Positions 15,666 to 24,142 of a stretch of 36,924 nucleotides of DNA are shown here, piece by piece. The stretch's first letter is position 1, and each line of letters begins with the position of its first letter. The position numbers and the translations under genes are program-made. Origin of the DNA: Gemmatimonadales bacterium (GTDB lineage: Bacteria > Gemmatimonadota > Gemmatimonadetes > Gemmatimonadales > GWC2-71-9); contig JBBQJU010000003.1 of NCBI GenBank assembly GCA_038326215.1, forward strand, positions 1 through 36,924, in the 5' to 3' direction. The notes below the pieces were generated by a model. The model was not told where the DNA came from. It was given only the letters and a program-made list of their open reading frames with translations, and ran no database searches.

Positions 15666-18600
15666 GACCGGCCTCGCGGATGACAGGAGTAGCACGCGGT
15701 CGCGACGTATCGATAGCCGCTCTGGCCTTGATGGTGCGAATTGGTCGTGGTCTGCGCGTGACAACCCGAGCTCATGCAGGTGTAGACCGTGTAATTCGCC
15801 GGCGCCGTATGGCAGGTCGCGCAGCTCGCCCAGCGCCCGCGGTGGGCGCCCGAATAGATCGGGAAGTACGGGCCGTCATGATCGAACGTCGCGCCGGTCC
15901 AGCGCGTTGTCGTATGGCAGGTGGCGCAGGTCGTCGGGAAGGCCGACCCGGAGTGGGACGGGTTGGTCGCGGAGGTGTAGTCCTGTTGGTGGCAGGAAAT
16001 GCACGTCGCCGGCAAGCCGCGGTACACATTGTTCCGGTGGCACGAGGTGCAGGTCGTGGTGACGTGCGCGCCGGTCAACGGGAACGCGGTGGTGCCGTGG
16101 TTGAAGGTCGCGCCTTGCCACCGCGTCGTCGTGTGGCACGTCGTGCACGTCGTGGAGAAGCCCGCGGCCGCGTGCGGCGGGGTCGTCGTCCGGCTGAAGT
16201 CCGTCTGGTGGCACGAGATGCAGGTCGTCGGCTTGCCGCGATAGACGCCGTCGGCGTGGCAACTCGCACAACTCACCGCCTGGTGCGCCCCGGTGAGGGG
16301 GAATTGCGTGGTGCTGTGATTGAAGGTGGCGCCCAACCACCGGGTGGTGGTATGGCAGGTGGTGCAGTCGGTGGAGTAGCCTGCCGCCGCGTGCGCCGGC
16401 GTGCGCGTCGCGTCGTAGTTCGTGCGGTGACAGGACACGCAGGTCGTCGGCTTGCCGCGATACACGCCGTCCGCGTGACACGACGCGCACGTCGCCGTAA
16501 GGTGACCACCAGTCAGCGGGAACCGAGTCGTGCTGTGGTTGAACGTCGCGCCCTGCCACCGCGTGGTCGTGTGACAGGTGGTGCAGTCGGTCGAGTACCC
16601 GGCCGCTGCGTGCGCCGGGGTGCGGGTGCCGTCGTAGTCGGTGCGGTGACACGATACGCAGGTCATCGACTTGCCGCGGTAGACATTGTCCGCGTGGCAG
16701 GAGGCACACGAGGCCGCCTGGTGACCGCCAGTCAACGGGAACCGCGTGGTGCCGTGGTTGAAGATCGCGCCTTCCCATCGGGTCGTGGTGTGGCACGTGG
16801 TGCAATCGGTCGCGAATCCCGCCGCAGCGTGAGGCGGCGTCGTTGTCCGGGTGAAGTCCGCCTGGTGACATGAGAGACACGCCGTGGGCTTCCCACGGTA
16901 GACACCATCGGCGTGACATGACGCGCACGTCGCCGTGAGGTGACCACCAGTCAGCGGGAAGCGGGTCGTGCTGTGATTGAACGTCGCGCCCTGCCACCGG
17001 GTCGTCGAATGGCAGGTCGTGCAGTCGGTCGAGTACCCCGCCGCCGCATGCGCCGGCGTCCGCGTGGCGTCGTAGTTGGGACGGTGACACGAGATGCAGG
17101 TGGTCGGCTTACCGCGGTAGACACCATCCGCGTGACACGAGGCGCAGGTCGCGGTGAGGTGGCCCCCGGTCAGCGGAAATTGCGTGGTCGAGTGGTTGAA
17201 GGTCCCGCCCTGCCACCGGGTGGTGGTGTGGCAGGTGGTACACTCGGTCGAGAAGCCGGCCGATGCGTGTGGCGGGGTCCGCGCCTGATCGAAGTTCTGG
17301 CGGTGGCACGAGACGCACGTCATCGACCGGCCGCGATAGACCCCGTCGGCATGGCACGTGGCGCAGGTCACCGCCTGGTGCCCGCCGGTCAGCGGGAAGC
17401 GGGTGGTGTTGTGGTTGAAGCCCGCACCAAGCCAGGCGGTCGAGTTGTGGCAGCTCACGCAGTCGGTCGAGTAGCCGGCCGCCGCATGCGGGGGCACGGT
17501 GGTGCGATCGAAATTCTGCCGGTGACACGAGACGCAGGTCATCGCCTTCCCCTTGTACACGCCGTCGGCGTGGCAGGAGGCACAGGTCAGCGGCTGGTGT
17601 CCGCCCGTAAGCGGGAAGCGCGTGGTCGTGTGATTGAAGGGCGTGCCGAGCCAGCGGCTGGTGGTATGGCAGGTCGTGCAATCGGTCGAGAAGCCGGCGG
17701 CGCCGTGCGGTGGCGTCTTGGTCTGATCAAAGTTCGGGCGGTGACAGGAGACACAACTCGTCGCCTTCCCCTTGAAGACGCCGTCGGTATGGCAGGACGC
17801 GCACTGGGTGGCCTGGTGGCCGCCGGTCAGCGGGAACGTGGTCGTATTGTGGTCGAAGGTCGCCCCGCGCCAGACCGTCGTGGTGTGGCACGTGGTACAA
17901 TCGGTGGAGAAGGCGGCCGCGCTGTGCGCCGGCATCTTGGTCTGGTCGAATTGCGGGCGGTGACACGAAATGCAGGTCGTCGGCTTGCCCCGGTAGACGC
18001 CATCAGCGTGGCAGCTCGCGCACTGCGTCGCCTGGTGGCCGCCGGTCAGCGGGAACGCGGTCGTATTGTGGTCGAACGGCGCACCGCGCCAGGCGTTCTC
18101 GCTATGACAGGTCAGGCAGTCGGTTGGAAAACCAGCCGCCGAGTGCTTCGGCGCTGCGGCCTTGTCGTAGTCCGCCTTGTGACAGCTGATGCAGGTCGAG
18201 GGGCGGTTGGCAAACTGCGGCTTCCCCGCCGAGGTCGGCGTATGGCAGGCCTCACAGGCCGTCGCGACGTGCGCGCCCCGAAGGGGGAAGCGATTCTCCT
18301 CGTGCAACCGTGCCAGACGAGCCTGGTCGGTGAAGCTGCGGGTGGTGTGGCAGCGCATGCAGTCGCGGCCAAGCTCAGCGCGGTGCACGTCCTGGTGACA
18401 CGACGCACAGGTGGTCTTGGTCTTCGAAAATTCGAGCGTGGTATGGCAGGCCGTGCAGGTCGCCGTGGCGTGCGCGCCGTCGAGCGGGAAGGTCCGCTCG
18501 GCGTGCCGGAACGCCGCCGAAATCCGCACCGGTTTCCACCCCTCGGGGCGGTGACAGGTGGCGCATGCCCCAATCGCCGGGCCGTGCGGGTTGGCGCCGG

Positions 18601-18679: not shown

Positions 18680-20688
18680 TGCACCCCTCCGGCGGGTTTC
18701 GCCTTGTGGCAGCTCTCGCAACTGCTCGACACCGGCCGATAGATCACCCGCGGTGTGCCGCCGACCTGTTCGGTGCGATGGCACTGGCTGCAGGCCACGG
18801 TCGCGTGGGCACCTTTCAGGGAGAACGTCGATTGCCGCTCATGGTCGAAGCGAATCGCCCCGACAAATCGATCGCTGGTGTGGCACGTCTCGCAGCGGCC
18901 GCGATCGGGGCGGCTGTCGAACTGCGTCCCGTGGGGCGTCTGATGGCAGCTCGCGCACGTCGTGCCTTTCGGCACGCCCAGCGCCACCCGAGCCATCGTA
19001 CTGGCCGCCCCGACGAGCGACGCCCGGCCGGTCGCGAGCACGCTCGCGGCCGGGAGCCCGCTGTGGCACTCGCGGCACGGCACCGCCCGGTGCGCACCCT
19101 CCAGGGCAAACGCGAACCGCGCATGCGATTCCATCCCGATCGTCGACGGACGGAACGCCGTCGCCGTGTGGCAGTTGCCACAGGTGGCGGTCGTGTCGCG
19201 GCGCTGGGTCTCGCCGGCGATCAGGTGCGGATCAGCGTGGCAGGACGCACAGCGCGTCTCCGGCAGCTTGAACTGGAGTCCGGCGGTCCCGAGCGTGGTC
19301 GTCTTCGCGAGGGCCGGCAAGCCGCGGCGGGTCGCCGAGTGACAATCCGAGCAGGCGATCGCCGCATGCCGTCCCTCGAGGGGCAGCGTCGTGGCGCTGT
19401 GCGTGGCCCGCTCGTACCGCAACTCCTTCCAGCCGAGATCGCTATGGCAGCGCTCGCACGGCGTGCCGGGGAGCTGGGCGCCGTGTGCGTCGAGGTGGCA
19501 GGACGTACAGGTGGCGAAAGCGACCCGTAGATGCGTCACGCTGGCCCCGGCCGGTGCCCCGGCTGACTTGGTCGCCTTGTGGCAGGAAGCGCAGGGGACC
19601 ACGCGGTGCTTGCCCTCGAGCGGGTACCGGGCCGTGCTGTGCTGAGCCACCGAAAAGGTCGCTGGGGCAAAGCCCTCCACCCGATGGCAGGCCGCACAAT
19701 CGACGACCGCCCCGGCGAGCGTGGCCTCGCCAGCGTGCCGGTCGGCATGACAGGAGGCACAGCTCGTGGAGACGGGCCGGGGTGTGGCCATATCGCGCCC
19801 ATGACACGCGTCGCAGCCCACCTGGCGATGTTTGCCGAGGAGGGGGTAGCGAGTCAGCGTGTGGTTGAAGCCGCGACGGTCCAGCACATCAAACCCCTGG
19901 GTCACGTGACAGTCACTGCATTTCGACGAGAGCCGCCCCTTGTGGGGATCGGCGTGGCAACTCGAGCATTCGGCGTACGGCAGGGGGCGGTAGAGCGCGT
20001 TCCGCTTCCCCGTGGCATCCGGTGTAATACGGAGTGTCGGCGCGAGGTGACATTTGTTGCACGCCACCTCCGCATGGGCGCCGGTTAGTTGATATCGGGC
20101 ACTCACATGGTCGAATTTCGTGGCCGGATCCCATTGAGCCGCCGTGTGGCACTTCTCGCACTTCGGCCCCAGCGACTTCTGGTGCGGGTCGTCCTTGGCA
20201 TGACACGAAGCGCATGCCGTCCCCAACCCCATCCACCCAGGCGACCCCTTCCTGGGCGAGATCAGCGCGGCGGGATCGGTCCGGTACTGGGCCACGTGAC
20301 ACTTGGCGCAGGCGAGCGGCGCGTGCTTTCCCTCCAGCTCCCAACCGGCACCGCGGTGATCAAAGCGGTCGCGCCCCCCGGCCGGCCAGGCGATCATCGC
20401 GAACTCGCGCCCGGCATGATCAGGGTGGCACGACGCGCAGCTCTTCCCCGACGTCTTCGCCTCGCGGGCGTGATAGCCTCGTCCCTGCGAGACCAGCAGC
20501 GTCACTTCCTTGTGGCAACTCAGGCAGAGTCGCGGCATCGCGTCCTTGGAGGGACCGTGACACTGGGAGCACTTGGTTGCCCCCTCGAGAGCCTGGTGGG
20601 CTCGGGCCAACGGCCCCGGCGAGATCTGCGCCGCCACTAGCCGCGGCAGCAGCAGGACGACGAGTCCCAGCCACCGCATCCCGCGCAA
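18676..20688 (-). CDS. Secreted 23-heme c-type cytochrome (diverged triheme modules)
   Basis: 23 CxxCH motifs and 24 other His counted by hand. Sec signal ending VAA|QISPG. Same FxH..LxGxH-CxxCH..CxxCH..DPH..CxxCH module with variable loops. TTG start directly follows the upstream TGA (alternative ATG at 20679). Confidence 0.95.
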   Translation of the reverse strand: MRGMRWLGLVVLLLPRLVAAQISPGPLARAHQALEGATKCSQCHGPSKDAMPRLCLSCHKEVTLLVSQGRGYHAREAKTSGKSCASCHPDHAGREFAMIAWPAGGRDRFDHRGAGWELEGKHAPLACAKCHVAQYRTDPAALISPRKGSPGWMGLGTACASCHAKDDPHQKSLGPKCEKCHTAAQWDPATKFDHVSARYQLTGAHAEVACNKCHLAPTLRITPDATGKRNALYRPLPYAECSSCHADPHKGRLSSKCSDCHVTQGFDVLDRRGFNHTLTRYPLLGKHRQVGCDACHGRDMATPRPVSTSCASCHADRHAGEATLAGAVVDCAACHRVEGFAPATFSVAQHSTARYPLEGKHRVVPCASCHKATKSAGAPAGASVTHLRVAFATCTSCHLDAHGAQLPGTPCERCHSDLGWKELRYERATHSATTLPLEGRHAAIACSDCHSATRRGLPALAKTTTLGTAGLQFKLPETRCASCHADPHLIAGETQRRDTTATCGNCHTATAFRPSTIGMESHARFAFALEGAHRAVPCRECHSGLPAASVLATGRASLVGAASTMARVALGVPKGTTCASCHQTPHGTQFDSRPDRGRCETCHTSDRFVGAIRFDHERQSTFSLKGAHATVACSQCHRTEQVGGTPRVIYRPVSSSCESCHKAKPAGGVQ

Positions 20689-22116
20689 TCAGCTCACCTG
20701 CTCGACATCGCGAGGGATCGGCACATCCTTCTGCACGATCCGCACACCGATCTGTTCAAGGAACGCGAACGGCGCATCGCCGCCGATCCGGACGACCACG
20801 TCGTCATTCGGCAGAATCATCGGGCCAGATGGCCCTTCGAGGATCGCCACGTCGGCGCGGACCTCGCGCAATTGGGTCTCCAGGAGCAAGGTGATCCGGC
20901 CCGCGGCGACCGCCCGATCCAGCTTCTCCTGATTGCGCGGCTTGATCCGCGGGAACGACGCGTTGCGATAGGAGAGTTGCACCGTCGTACCCTCTTGATT
21001 GCCAAGGCCGACGGCCGATTCGATGGCGCTGTCGCCACCACCGACCACCAGCACGCGCCGACCCGCGAACTGCTCCATCTCGACGATCTCGTACACGACC
21101 TTGCTCAGCTCCTCGCCGATCACGCCGAGTTTCCGAGGCGACCCGCGGCGACCCATCGCGAGGACCACGCGGCGGGTCCGATACACCGCGGCCGAAGTCT
21201 CGACCCGAAAGAGCGTCCCCTCGGCCGTGACCTTCAACACGCGTTCACCGGTCCGGACCTGCAGCCCGCTGCTCGCGACGATGCTCTCCCACGCGCGCAG
21301 CAGCGACTCCTTGGATGTGTCCGCGACCCAGAGGTTGCCATACAGCGGCATCTGGATCGGCTCGGCCAGCAGCAACTTGTGGCGAGGATATTTCCGCACG
21401 CTCTCCGACAGGGAGCCCTGTTCCACCATCACGTATTTGAGTCCGCTGCGGATTGCCTCGACGCCGGCGCTCAAGCCGGCTGGTCCGCTGCCGACGATCA
21501 GCACATCCACCGCGTCGCGTTCGTCGGCGGTCGCCGGGGACAGCGTCGCGGCGATGTGCTCGACGGCCAGGCATCCCTCATTCACCGCATTCTTGATCAA
21601 CCCGCGCCCACCGAGCTCGCCCACGATGAACAGACCGGGGAGATTGCTCTCGAAGTTGGCATCGACCAACGGCACGGAGACCCGGTTCACCGCCGCGCCG
21701 GTCGTGACCAGAATTCCGCCGACCGGGCAGGCCGCCACGCATTCGCCGTGGCCCTTGCAGAGGGCGTCATCCACGACGGCGAGCTTCTTGTGCATGGTGA
21801 TCGCGCCCGGCTCCGGGCAGGCGTCCACGCAGGTTCCGCAGCCGACGCAGATATCGGCCCGGACCATCGCCTTCGGCTCCCCGCTCCCGGCCGCGAGTTC
21901 CCCCTCCACGACCGGCGCCGAGACCAATTCGTAGGCCTGCTGTGGTGCCCCGCACTGACGGCAGCGCATCGCGCCGACATGGAGCGCCGTGCCGCACCGC
22001 GGACAGTTCGGCATCATCGCTGAGCCGCCGCCGGCCTTCGCCGTCGCCCGCAGGTGCGTGCGGATGGCGAGCCCGGTGATCAGGACGAAGGCGAGGAGCG
22101 TCGCGAGCGTTTCCAC
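20689..22116 (-). CDS. Membrane-anchored zinc-ribbon + 2x[Fe-S] ferredoxin + FAD/NAD(P)H oxidoreductase (TrxR/YpdA-like, circularly permuted)
   Basis: N-terminal TM helix, CPRC..CRQC, CVGCGTCVDACP, CKGHGECVAACP, SNLPGLFIVGE, VLIVGSGPAG (FAD), AMGRRG, VLVVGGGDSA..SYR (NADPH-type). No redox-active CxxC in the reductase part. Confidence 0.88.
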   Translation of the reverse strand: METLATLLAFVLITGLAIRTHLRATAKAGGGSAMMPNCPRCGTALHVGAMRCRQCGAPQQAYELVSAPVVEGELAAGSGEPKAMVRADICVGCGTCVDACPEPGAITMHKKLAVVDDALCKGHGECVAACPVGGILVTTGAAVNRVSVPLVDANFESNLPGLFIVGELGGRGLIKNAVNEGCLAVEHIAATLSPATADERDAVDVLIVGSGPAGLSAGVEAIRSGLKYVMVEQGSLSESVRKYPRHKLLLAEPIQMPLYGNLWVADTSKESLLRAWESIVASSGLQVRTGERVLKVTAEGTLFRVETSAAVYRTRRVVLAMGRRGSPRKLGVIGEELSKVVYEIVEMEQFAGRRVLVVGGGDSAIESAVGLGNQEGTTVQLSYRNASFPRIKPRNQEKLDRAVAAGRITLLLETQLREVRADVAILEGPSGPMILPNDDVVVRIGGDAPFAFLEQIGVRIVQKDVPIPRDVEQVS

Positions 22117-22125
22117 GCGCCTGGC

Positions 22126-23148
22126 CTAGTACCGCACCACGCCAACGGCGAGGACGACCACGATATGGATGATGACGGCGACCATCGCCGTCACGGCGAA
22201 GGGACGATGCGCCACGTGCCAGAAGCGGAAGACCCGGTGGGTCGCCTCGAGCATGCGCGACTGCTGTTCCAGCGACATTTCCTGCGAGGCAAGGCGTACC
22301 GCCTCGCCGAGGGCCGCCTTGCTCAGCGGCCGCCCCGCCGGCGCGACCCCCGCCCAGCGCCGCTGCAATTCCGAGGTGCGGCGCCACCGCGTGAGATCAT
22401 CGGCGATCAGCCGCAGGAAGATCTTGCCGAGGCTCTGTTCGGCCTCCACCGGTGCGCCGACGGCCAACGTCCGTTCGACGACGTCGACGCCGAGGCCGGT
22501 GGTTTCGGCGAGTTCCCCAATCAACTCGCGCCGACGACCAGCCACTTCTTCACGGGTCAGTTCGACGCCGTTGCGGGCGCGCGGAATCCGGACATAGAGG
22601 TAGCGACCAATGACACCGCTGGCGATCACGATCATCATCGAAAGCAAGCCGAGGCCGATGAGGCCGTCGGCGCGCCAGGTCGCATGGATGGCCAGCAGCA
22701 ACGGCATAGCCAACGCGGTCGCGACATGGACGTCCATCCATTTGCCGAGGGAACCGAGGAAGGCAAGCCGCTTGTACTTCTTGCGGAGTGGGTAGAGCCA
22801 GAGAAAAATGAAGATCGCCACCGCCACCATCCCGGCGGTCAGGCCGACGGTCCCGGACGGCCGGAGCATGGCATGCCACGGATGCCGCACCCGTTGGGCC
22901 ATCGGCTCCAGATAATAGGGCGCTCCGATCAGGTTCACGGCCACGAGCGGCAATGCCACACCAAAGGTCCACGCCCAGAGCTTCCAGCGACCCCGTCGGG
23001 CGGCTGCCGTCGCCAGCGCCTTCGGTGTCGGCCGGACCGCGCCGCTGGGCGCGGCATCGACGGCTGTCGATACTTGAGGCGCCCGCACCAATTCAGGCTG
23101 GGGAGGCGCTTCAAACGCTGGCTGCAGACGGCGTGCGGGTTCGGTCAT
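22126..23148 (-). CDS. Ferric-reductase/NOX-like transmembrane di-heme cytochrome b
   Basis: About 5 TM helices. Two helices each carry H-x13-H (HVATALAMPLLLAIH; HRPFAVTAMVAVIIH). SGVIGRYLY motif, about 100-aa soluble insert, RBS GAGGAAAGGGG. Confidence 0.75.
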   Translation of the reverse strand: MTEPARRLQPAFEAPPQPELVRAPQVSTAVDAAPSGAVRPTPKALATAAARRGRWKLWAWTFGVALPLVAVNLIGAPYYLEPMAQRVRHPWHAMLRPSGTVGLTAGMVAVAIFIFLWLYPLRKKYKRLAFLGSLGKWMDVHVATALAMPLLLAIHATWRADGLIGLGLLSMMIVIASGVIGRYLYVRIPRARNGVELTREEVAGRRRELIGELAETTGLGVDVVERTLAVGAPVEAEQSLGKIFLRLIADDLTRWRRTSELQRRWAGVAPAGRPLSKAALGEAVRLASQEMSLEQQSRMLEATHRVFRFWHVAHRPFAVTAMVAVIIHIVVVLAVGVVRY

Positions 23149-23347: not shown

Positions 23348-24142
23348 ATGCACCAGTCATCCTCAATCCCTTGTCCCCACTGCGGCACCATGTCCACCGG
23401 AAAATTCTGCGAGAGTTGCGGCATGCCGATCGCCGAATCCGCGTGTCGGACATGCGGCACGATCGCCGGGCCGGGGACAATGTTCTGCGCGAATTGTGGG
23501 ACGAGTGTTGGTGGTGACGCACCACTCCGGCAGGACGACACAACGCAGGCTGTTCCATCACGCCGGATGCCCGGCTGGGCGATTCCGGCGATGATCGCCG
23601 TCGTGGCCGTGGCAGCGCTGAGCTGGGCCGCCACGCGCCCGAGTGCGACCGTCACCACCGGAGGGACGACCACGCCGAGCGGTACCGTGGCCTCCGACGG
23701 CACCCCGCCCGATCTCTCCAAACTCAGTCCCCAAGAGCAATTCCTGCGATTGGCCGATCGCATCGAGGCGTCAGTCCAGTCGGGGGACACGGCCACCGTG
23801 GTCCGTTTTTTCCCGATGATGGAGCAGGCCTTTACCAATCTGCCCACCGCCGATCGCAATGTCGACCTGCGCTTTCACTTGGCGCTGTTGCGCGCGCAGG
23901 TGGGCCACTTCCCTGGCGCGGTCGCGCAGATCGACACGATCGTGATCGGCGCGAAGAGCCACCTCTTCGTCGACTATCTCCGCGCGTTGATAGCGGACTA
24001 TCAGGGCAATGCCGCCGCTGGCCGCACTGCCCGACTCGCCTTCCGCCAACACTTCGATGCCGAGATTGCCCTGAAGCGACCCGAATACTTCCAGCACCGC
24101 GCCCTGCTCGACGAGTTCCTGAAGACTACCCCGACCAAGTAG
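23348..24142 (+). CDS. Double zinc-ribbon + single TM + helical/TPR-like domain protein
   Basis: CPHCG..CESCG..CRTCG..CANCG, TM segment WAIPAMIAVVAVAALSW, Thr/Gly linker, helical C-terminal domain. GGAGA RBS. Confidence 0.8.
   Translation: MHQSSSIPCPHCGTMSTGKFCESCGMPIAESACRTCGTIAGPGTMFCANCGTSVGGDAPLRQDDTTQAVPSRRMPGWAIPAMIAVVAVAALSWAATRPSATVTTGGTTTPSGTVASDGTPPDLSKLSPQEQFLRLADRIEASVQSGDTATVVRFFPMMEQAFTNLPTADRNVDLRFHLALLRAQVGHFPGAVAQIDTIVIGAKSHLFVDYLRALIADYQGNAAAGRTARLAFRQHFDAEIALKRPEYFQHRALLDEFLKTTPTK

Follow-up and report, generated by a model that had tools for sequence, protein, structure and literature searches.

Neighbouring genes for giant multihaem cytochromes in a Gemmatimonadales bacterium appear to divide one c7-type triheme domain between them

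Introduction

Uncultured bacteria of soils and sediments commonly encode giant multihaem cytochromes, whose assembly is almost wholly obscure. The Geobacter nanowire cytochrome GSU1996 (3OV0, 3OUE, 1RWJ) is composed of tandem c7-type domains whose three CXXCH motifs are ordered I, III and IV and whose haems form a linear chain; the protein is one polypeptide of 12 haems and whole domains. The MtrCAB and Pcc conduits place multihaem cytochromes beside a barrel gene. In the filaments of OmcS, OmcE and OmcZ, homopolymers of 4–8-haem subunits, a continuous haem chain is made from more than one polypeptide arranged head to tail, with His ligation between subunits in OmcS filaments. The modules of cytochrome c3, the 16-haem HmcA and the nine-haem cytochrome of sulfate reducers start with FxH..H-x4-CXXCH, and CX4CH is a cytochrome c3 motif. 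According to PMC10138318, GSU1996 has one His-Met haem per domain. Fission and fusion at the level of modules is an accepted evolutionary route of multihaem cytochromes, and in the cases described (Soares et al. 2022, PMC9250108; 10.1101/2025.05.29.656830) the cuts lie between redox modules.

The window analysed here is a 36,924-nucleotide stretch of a Gemmatimonadales contig (JBBQJU010000003.1), and it contains two adjacent cytochrome genes that we call A23 and B40 after their haem numbers:

18676..20688, minus strand: A23, 670 aa with 23 CXXCH motifs, a periplasmic multihaem cytochrome
15662..18679, minus strand: B40, 1005 aa with 39 CXXCH motifs and one CX4CH, 40 haems in all
18676-18679, minus strand: ATGA overlap of the A23 stop and the B40 start codon, translational coupling

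Like GSU1996, A23 and B40 have tandem c7-type domains with three CXXCH motifs each and a linear haem chain, but they carry 23 and 40 haems and one domain appears to be divided between the two gene products. Unlike GSU1996, their haems are apparently all bis-His (in each module three distal His are conserved and no Met is), and the third distal ligand is found between haem III and haem IV. The module start of the sulfate reducers' cytochromes is also found in A23 and B40, and the last B40 module resembles cytochrome c3 in the CX4CH of its second haem; in contrast to c3 and HmcA, however, tetrahaem domains are absent, the gene context is different, and scores against the NCBIfam models for HmcA (138 vs 400) and the nine-haem cytochrome (32 vs 640) are far under the cut-offs. 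The arrangement that we propose shares a continuous head-to-tail chain with the Omc filaments but would be a heterodimer of two giant chains, and the number and spacing of His residues disfavour the inter-subunit ligation of OmcS. As in MtrCAB and Pcc, the cytochrome genes adjoin a possible outer-membrane barrel, but they encode far more haems, no recognised porin family is present, and the genes conserved with them encode a Fer4-FAD oxidoreductase and a membrane protein of an unnamed family. Finally, split and fused forms of one architecture exist in the present family too; whereas published cuts fall between redox modules, the conserved cut described here appears to lie inside a triheme domain, with both parts encoded by neighbouring genes, an arrangement that was not found in the literature searched on multihaem cytochrome fusion and fission, as far as the accessible text of those papers extends. 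This intradomain cut, together with the existence of one-piece relatives, amounts to a natural experiment on how haem chains continue across protein borders.

Results

A23 ends and B40 begins with complementary parts of a module

The sequence at the junction is laid out as follows:

18679..18864, minus strand: last module of A23, cut short (residues 609-670; 12-67 of the 91 profile positions)
18778-18792, minus strand: A23 haem 22, CSQCH
18706-18720, minus strand: A23 haem 23, CESCH
18605..18679, minus strand: predicted signal peptide of B40, residues 1-25 (...LLAGRAGA, then QS), from sequence features
18533..18604, minus strand: mature N-terminal piece of B40, residues 26-49, with NPH32, haem 1 and RPEGW
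18584-18586, minus strand: NPH32 of B40
18551-18565, minus strand: B40 haem 1, CATCH

When modules are read with their haems in the order A, B, C, the phase used by the initial annotation, A23 consists of an N-terminal cap (haems 1-3), six full c7-type triheme modules and a module cut after its second haem, which retains FxH, GxH and haems A and B. In the same phase B40 comprises its signal peptide, a piece with PH and a single haem C, and 13 triheme modules of which the last is c3-like, and the haems of the two proteins total 63, or 21 x 3. The C-terminus of A23 reads ...FDH616..GAH628-CSQCH(22)..CESCH(23)-KAKPAGGVQ, where KAKPAGGVQ is a variable nine-residue tail before the stop and the most variable stretch of the protein (entropy 2.97 bits). 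B40 starts with MRQTMLRGLTAAAVLLALLAGRAGA, followed by QSGANPH32GPAIGACATCH(1)RPEGW..FRH..FPLDGAH, and the part up to RPEGW corresponds to the last third of a module, that is, the His and haem IV of a c7-type domain. A module profile of 91 positions placed the last match in A23 at positions 12-67 (residues 613-664). In B40 it first gave a partial match, at positions 79-91 (residues 37-49), and then 13 full modules. The proposal of the initial annotation that the termini carry complementary parts of a single triheme module holds, and the interval that it gave, 18540-18850, covers the junction correctly.

Searched against the PDB, a profile of 27 A-type modules matched GSU1996 (3ov0) with an E of 1.3e-11 over four stretches (28-81, 111-159, 188-238 and 265-317), in each of which A=I, B=III and C=IV. 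It also matched 1rwj (E 7e-4) and domain I of HmcA, and a profile of two B-type modules gave no GSU1996 match in the PDB. The Cytochrome_C7 family PF14522 was matched by A23 at 109.8 bits in 7 stretches and by B40 at 150.5 bits in 12 (cut-off 24.8); for TIGR04257 (nanowire_3heme) A23 scored 33.9 bits, under the cut-off of 40, and no match was listed for B40. Both proteins passed PF02085 (60.5 and 104 bits vs a cut-off of 22.9), but we rejected membership of cytochrome c3 class III, whose domains of about 110 aa have four haems, not the three of these modules. Single-sequence PDB searches returned nothing at E <= 1 for A23 and only two matches for B40, both weak. Because the repeat in the A-B-C phase matches the c7-type domain of GSU1996 with its haems I, III and IV, the break would fall within a structural domain and separate haem III from the piece with His and haem IV.

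The break is conserved across homologues

Among the 120 A23 homologues listed (identity 47-83%), 115 had 3n+2 haems and the same stop point, 114 of them with 23 haems and one with 20. All of these end 5-27 aa (mode 9) past a haem B, and in 120/120 homologues the final match to the module profile stops between positions 60 and 74 of 91. B-type proteins, a class defined by the presence of the N-terminal PH His, have 3m+1 haems in 88 of 90 cases, and the two exceptions are point changes in one site each. The odd haem counts that we examined as natural 'knock-outs' likewise trace to point changes (CASCP, ASASCH, RAACH), and one two-haem module in L035 is compatible with several maps of haems to His residues. 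Since the truncation recurs in 120/120 of the listed A23 homologues and the 3m+1 count in 88/90 B-types, it is not due to chance; the breakpoint, whose conservation the initial annotation had made a point to check, is conserved rather than random. In all five class I loci from other genomes (5/5), A precedes B with an overlap of 4-20 nt. The ATGA overlap is identical in L001, L003 and L035, and overlaps of 17-20 nt are found in L002 and L033; in L003 the last match of A ends at profile position 65 and the first of B begins at 67. In class II, from Proteobacteria, the split comes after one more haem and coincides with the repeat border: the last profile position reached in the A proteins is 90-91 (15/15), and the first in their partners is 4-10 (13/13).

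A signal peptide is predicted in all B-type homologues listed. Residues P31, H32, C39, C42, H43 and W48 of B40 are invariant in 22 aligned sequences, and the entropy of the N-terminal piece is 1.60 vs 1.26-1.63 in other modules; for the truncated module of A23 it is 1.59 vs 1.44-1.90. Neither terminal piece exceeds the internal modules in conservation, the A23 tail is variable, and no conserved docking surface stands out. Pro/Ala/Thr-rich extensions of 20-30 aa precede PH in some B-type proteins, suggesting that their N-terminus is loose. An AF2 model of whole A23 had a pLDDT of 80, and given the normal confidence in its truncated module (71-87) this module may be stable on its own. With this 670-residue model, a poorly suited query, Foldseek gave no match at E <= 0.001, the best VIA matches, with Z 3.2-3.5, were to Shewanella STC and confined to residues 21-115, and no c7 or GSU1996 row was among the matches listed by either. 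AF2 of whole B40, from 22 sequences, had a mean pLDDT of 45, too low for the model to be used. Complex prediction of A23 604-670 with B40 26-82 and four haems, run on the proteins' own alignments and without controls, gave ipSAE values of 0.01 and 0.12, below the mark of 0.32, which we count neither for nor against docking.

Single-chain relatives point to fission or fusion

The initial annotation had suggested that the two proteins derive from fission of one gene and proposed a search for fused orthologues. We found 16 single-chain relatives, which have an A-type N-terminus and a B-type C-terminus, with A-type modules preceding B-type modules, and 15 of which have 3k haems (36-60). On the strength of these features, the sequences support well that one gene was split or two were fused in the history of A23 and B40. 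One clade holds split class I and fused forms together (SH-aLRT 83 in a quick tree), and the tree, being unrooted, does not decide the direction. The one-chain protein P0114 reads ..YRPTEPACEGCH-A-SPHGPLGGAKCSDCH-SVSGW, to be compared with ..YRPVSSSCESCH of A23 and NPHGPAIGACATCH-RPEGW of B40. In 13 fused relatives the PH His is absent from the corresponding module. When both termini were aligned locally with 17 fused proteins, the best matches were scattered over different repeats, so that orthology module by module is not fixable by sequence; only the C-terminus of A23 in P0114 aligned to the module taken as equivalent.

Haem ligation and alternative readings of the junction

In each chain the distal His residues equal the haems in number, with 23, all invariant, in A23 and 40, all conserved, in B40. 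In A-type modules the third His lies at i+4 from the proximal His of haem B; in B-type modules it precedes haem C by 7-8 residues. In the c7/c3 ligand map FxH serves haem A(I) and GxH serves haem B(III), which leaves the NPH His, most likely, to ligate the haem after it, its own haem C. By homology and counting, then, every haem would be bis-His within its own chain, with FxH to A, GxH to B and PxH to C. We rejected a map in which, by analogy with haem 4 of c3, the PxH of one module serves haem A of the module after it, because ligation would then have to be irregular at the two outer ends and at every class II junction.

The initial annotation had raised the prospect that the NPH His ligates a haem of the partner. 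In such an arrangement the chains would dock as in OmcS, and A23 might in return supply a His to haem 1 of B40; the NPH His is invariant at the extreme N-terminus of the 22/22 aligned B-types and present in all proteins classed as B-type (though the class is defined by it), a reciprocal swap would leave the His count balanced, and the absence of this His from the 13 fused relatives means that the residue has different roles in split and in fused forms. One-way donation, however, would produce one surplus His and one haem lacking a ligand. Moreover, the His stands only four residues past the proximal His of haem B in P0114 and in A-type modules that are contiguous, and thus cannot reach the other face of that haem, two axial ligands of one haem being unable to lie four residues apart; haems A(I) and B(III) already have their ligands by homology, and the His is without exception on the haem C side of the break, not on the side of haems A and B. 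We therefore consider ligation of a partner haem very improbable. It is also quite improbable, in our judgement, that the phase is an artefact and the true unit is PxH..C..FxH..GxH..A..B, which would make the ends of A23 and B40 natural domain borders with nothing split. The best Pfam c7 stretch of B40 (763-825) does sit in that phase, the GxH-x4-CXXCH-x11-CXXCH of B-type modules resembles the c7 stretch of His, haem III and haem IV, and c7 proteins terminate just past haem IV as A23 does past haem 23. Against this, all four GSU1996 domains align in the A-B-C phase and the GSU1996 chain ends after the C-equivalent haem IV, the proteins of the family open with haem A and close with haem C, and the Proteobacterial pairs meet at the profile ends; the other phase would instead split both outer ends and all class II junctions.

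We favour, with modest confidence, the reading that A23 and B40 are two parts of one very long 'nanowire' cytochrome of c7-type triheme domains, made as two coupled, separately exported chains. A23 would retain two distal His and haems I and III (haems 22 and 23), and B40 would open with the remaining piece, H32 seven residues before haem IV (haem 1). In the periplasm the exposed haem 23 would pack against the small self-ligated unit of haem 1 in the manner of haems III and IV within a c7 domain, giving one chain of 63 haems. Head-to-tail docking is plausible given the split domain, the ATGA coupling and the fused relatives, and the pair probably works as a single, very long electron wire, since more than a hundred relatives retain the break and other bacteria have the protein in one piece. 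Somewhat unlikely is that these are two independent cytochromes with a tolerated truncation and no stable complex, between which electrons pass by transient collision, or which occupy separate compartments (e.g. B40 at or beyond the outer membrane). Each chain is self-sufficient in axial His, the A23 tail is variable with conservation raised at neither end, some B-types have long flexible N-terminal extensions, the truncated module of A23 is modelled with normal confidence, and the Proteobacterial relatives are also two chains, split at a domain border. On the other side, more than 200 proteins share the same intradomain break position, retained together with overlapping genes; the strict 3n+2 and 3m+1 counts suggest that the piece with His and haem is still needed beside haem 23, and in the fused relatives both parts are one continuous chain. 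The joint of A23 and B40 offers a testable docking interface that would copy the haem III-IV contact of a solved fold, and the arithmetic of haem counts (3n+2, 3m+1, 3k) can expose partner proteins in metagenomes.

Gene neighbourhood

Three further genes flank the pair:

20689..22116, minus strand: gene abutting A23 upstream, 4Fe-4S dicluster plus FAD/NAD(P) oxidoreductase (YpdA/TrxB-like)
22126..23148, minus strand: orf340 (P0002), membrane protein of an unnamed family
13962..15764, minus strand: ORF downstream of B40, some 566 aa if read from a plausible start, ending ...VTWRF

Homologues of the Fer4-FAD oxidoreductase were found in 16 of 43 related loci and of orf340 in 30 of 43 (tblastn), the latter directly upstream of the A-type gene in the loci whose coordinates were compared; an Atlas look-up of orf340 returned unnamed clusters only. 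The downstream ORF had no family match in Pfam or NCBIfam, its homologues were confined to L001 and L002 among the 43 loci, and its Atlas clusters were unnamed, with an OMP barrel lead of only 0.86, so that an outer-membrane barrel is possible and a weak lead. Similarity to TIGR03508 (DmsE/MtrA-family) was weak (55-70 bits vs a cut-off of 192). The sequencing runs listed were two DNA runs of one study, with no RNA run among them. The cytochromes provide a handle on an uncharacterised cluster of membrane protein, Fer4-FAD oxidoreductase and two cytochromes that extends from Gemmatimonadota to Proteobacteria and Chloroflexota.

A more far-reaching possibility, which we regard as unlikely and put forward tentatively, is that A23 and B40 re-form the split c7 domain to give a single two-protein conductor of 63 haems, part of a new, phylum-spanning trans-envelope conduit. 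The intradomain split would then act as plug and socket between A23, spanning the periplasm, and B40, the outer part, which perhaps passes the downstream barrel; the chains would be exported and matured separately and then joined in haem III-IV geometry, and the unnamed membrane protein and the oxidoreductase would belong to the same conduit. GSU1996 measures roughly 1 nm in length per haem, and if this value holds here, the conductor would be ~60 nm long.

The break between A23 and B40 lies within a triheme unit and is conserved

The cytochromes A23 and B40 are encoded by consecutive genes, in which the TGA of the first overlaps the ATG of the second (ATGA).

18676-20688, minus strand: A23 ORF, 670 aa, 23 CXXCH motifs and 24 further His
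15662-18679, minus strand: B40 ORF from the ATG at 18679, 1005 aa, 39 CXXCH motifs, one CX4CH motif and 41 further His

In both proteins the order His, His, haem A, haem B, His, haem C recurs in tandem. Read in this phase, A23 consists of a three-haem cap, six units and a unit ending after haem B (FDH..LKGAH-CSQCH..CESCH-KAKPAGGVQ). B40, behind a predicted, typical signal peptide, consists of a [His, haem C] piece and 13 units, its mature start being QSGANPHGPAIGACATCHRPEGW, followed by FRH..FPLDGAH-CTACH. The two proteins together carry 63 haems (21 x 3). The initial annotation had described these ends as complementary parts of one triheme unit, with A23 stopping after haem B and B40 opening with the [His, haem C] piece, and both termini read as it stated. 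Other frames across B40 contain long ORFs of 397, 600 and 404 aa (15680-18742, plus strand; 15876-17090, minus strand); rich in Arg, Gly and Ala, they are shadow frames of a repeat with high GC and not likely to be genes.

We examined the best 120 of 4012 A23 homologues (47-83% identity), of which 114 have 23 haems and an A23-like N-terminus, one has 20 haems and five appear to be truncated at the N-terminus. In all 120, a haem B precedes the stop by 5-27 residues (mode 9). A unit profile of 91 positions was made from 27 units taken from the window and four loci. On this profile A23's final match spans positions 12-67, and that of these homologues ends at position 60-74 (120/120). B-type proteins were sought with the first 160 residues of B40, and the best 120 of 875 matches were examined for a B-type start (signal peptide, PH, 5-9 residues, CXXCH) and a B-type end. 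Among the matches listed, 90 proteins, including B40 itself, have both, and 88/90 have 3m+1 haems (22 to 70). Point changes at a single site (CASCP, ASASCH, RAACH) explain the two exceptions and one odd fused protein. The break, whose conservation the initial annotation had proposed to check, is thus kept on both sides.

An A gene is followed directly by a B gene in five loci of other genomes (Gemmatimonadota, Eisenbacteria, Balneolaceae), with ATGA or 17-20 nt overlaps. The A proteins of these loci end at profile position 65-66 (5/5), and the B protein of one of them, L003, begins at position 67. Fifteen A/B pairs among the matches listed agree in the length of their longest contig, a proxy for adjacency and no proof of it; three of these have consecutive NCBI locus tags. 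The A protein at L035:7791-9563 has 19 haems instead of 20, with one module shrunk to FDH-x7-CRSCH-AKDDPH-x8-CESCH, GxH and one haem having been lost together.

One-chain relatives and a second kind of split

A search for fused orthologues, also proposed initially, was successful: sixteen proteins among the B40 matches listed combine an A-type N-terminus (SPGPL..AH..LEG..C..CH) and a B-type C-terminus in a single chain, and 15/16 have 3k haems (36 to 60). A-type units come first, then B-type units; the third His stands 4 residues after haem B's His in the former and 7-8 residues before haem C in the latter. P0114, the fused form closest in the tree to the split forms L033 and L035, contains ..YRPTEPACEGCH-A-SPHGPLGGAKCSDCH-SVSGW. 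Judged from motifs, this stretch reads like the A23 end joined to the B40 start via one residue; when the termini are aligned locally to fused proteins, the repeats make the placement ambiguous.

Thirteen Acidobacteria-like fused forms have a special unit without the third His at the transition from A-type to B-type units. This unit reads C.DCH-W.RRQDD.[FY].T.LG..C..CH-RP..W and is found at haems 22-27 (P0034, P0037, P0062, P0067, P0069, P0070, P0071, P0076, P0079, P0090, P0097, P0098 and P0115). P0079 has 51 haems versus 50 other His, and in fused forms with the special unit one haem may be five-coordinate or otherwise ligated, exactly at the site where the window pair is split.

In Proteobacteria, a homologous pair is cut one haem later than in this first class (class I), at the unit border (class II). 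In 15/15 A proteins the haem count is 3n and the end falls at profile position 90-91, and their partners start at position 4-10 with FDH..GxH (13/13). Class II B proteins (L005-L036) have one c7-like module first, then a different two-haem repeat (..FNH....C..CHNG....GK...H.....C..CH..) and a distinct C-terminus (..C.GSCH.YTD......R..HHR). The B partner of one proteobacterial pair (L011:9406-16065) is a 2219-aa ORF with 84 haem motifs, and the homologue P0003 has 74 motifs in 1747 aa and a membrane-anchor-like N-terminus. At L031:3955-7626, three cytochrome reading frames with 18, 15 and 10 haems adjoin one another without gaps; one in-frame stop, within a repeat, is all that separates the last two, and this may reflect a recent break, read-through or an error of assembly.

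When the first 12 haems were used for a quick tree (58 rows; 10 rows with no anchor motif or fewer than 12 haems left out), class I split forms grouped with the fused ones (SH-aLRT 83 for the clade), and the forms of Proteobacteria and Chloroflexota fell outside this clade. The grouping is in line with fission or fusion of one gene; the direction of change is not readable from this tree. The split state appears on it as two changes and could still have had a single origin.

The unit resembles a c7-type domain

The A-type unit profile, in the phase used here, matches the dodecahaem cytochrome GSU1996 (3ov0; E 1.3e-11) in four stretches, one per domain. Haems A, B and C correspond to I, III and IV in each stretch, the haem order that GSU1996 shares with this unit, and the 3ov0 chain ends shortly after the haem equivalent to C. 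The same profile also matches HmcA domain I and OcwA. The outer ends of the A/B family keep this phase, starting at haem A and ending at haem C, and class II junctions all do likewise. Because the GSU1996 alignment, outer ends and class II junctions agree in phase, we identify the module from sequence as a c7-type domain, which places the class I break inside that domain. The alternative phase, with PxH, C, FxH, GxH, A, B as the true unit, resembles c7 in some motifs and is favoured by one Pfam stretch. It would, however, turn both outer ends and every class II junction into splits, and we regard it as very improbable.

Individual GSU1996 domains fold independently, according to PMC10138318. 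Polymers of c7 domains are already known, as is the fusion and fission of multihaem cytochromes at the level of modules (PMC10138318, PMC9250108 and 10.1101/2025.05.29.656830). The new element here appears to be a conserved cut within the triheme domain, the two parts of which persist as coupled genes; the main texts searched, as far as available, yielded no precedent for this.

Histidine ligation and docking of the two chains

Haems I and III of cytochromes c3 and c7 are ligated by the two His that precede haem I, so that the third His remains for haem C (IV). We therefore infer, from motifs rather than coordinates, a ligand map of FxH to A, GxH to B and PxH to C, with which all outer ends and both kinds of junction are regular. 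The initial annotation had instead suggested that the NPH His of B40 (H32) might ligate a haem of A23. Within each chain the non-proximal His equal the haems in number, with 23 (invariant) in A23 and 40 (conserved) in B40, so one-way donation across the joint would upset the balance. The third His always stays with haem C at the class I break and, lying only 4 residues after haem B's proximal His in A-type units and P0114, is ruled out as a ligand of haem B. These observations argue against ligation between subunits, to which we give hardly any credence. B40's own haem 1 is the most likely partner of H32, and the split would then sever the fold and no ligand bond.

The cut would expose haem 23 of A23 and leave haem 1 of B40 on an 18-residue self-ligated peptide. 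Since the cut falls inside a domain and would expose haem 23, the genes are coupled, haem bookkeeping is strict and one-chain relatives exist, we lean slightly towards stable head-to-tail docking of A23 and B40. Several findings count against a tight, specific interface: the A23 tail is the most variable stretch, conservation at the A23 C-terminal and B40 N-terminal ends is no higher than in internal units, some B-types have long Pro/Ala/Thr-rich N-terminal extensions, and AF2 modelled the truncated A23 unit at normal confidence. A transient partnership rather than a stable complex is a serious, if less probable, alternative.

Gene neighbourhood

Two further genes flank the pair.

20689-22116, minus strand: 4Fe-4S and FAD (Fer4-FAD) oxidoreductase gene, abutting A23
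13962-15764, minus strand: ORF downstream of B40, Ala/Ser/Thr/Gly-rich, ending ...YAAVTWRF

Oxidoreductase homologues occur in 16/43 related loci. Upstream of the oxidoreductase gene lies orf340, a membrane protein of an unnamed family that matched no Pfam or NCBIfam family; homologues occur in 30/43 related loci, just upstream of the A-type gene in loci with coordinates compared. The neighbourhood may represent an uncharacterised trans-envelope electron pathway. The ORF downstream of B40 had no family match, and of the 43 related loci only L001 and L002 gave homologues of it. Its C-terminal residues resemble those of an outer-membrane barrel, which is a weak lead. The TTG listed as the start of this ORF lies within the end of B40, and the real start is probably further in.

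The cluster of orf340, often the Fer4-FAD oxidoreductase, and then the A-type cytochrome (window 20689-23148, minus strand; L001-L040) is seen in Gemmatimonadota, Eisenbacteria, Balneolaceae, Proteobacteria, Chloroflexota and Bdellovibrionota. Ahead of its ferredoxin domain, the oxidoreductase carries a hydrophobic stretch at the N-terminus and a CxxC..CxxC like that of zinc ribbons (weak Pfam matches to DZR and Zn_Ribbon_1), and a separate double zinc-ribbon protein is encoded at 23348-24142 (plus strand).
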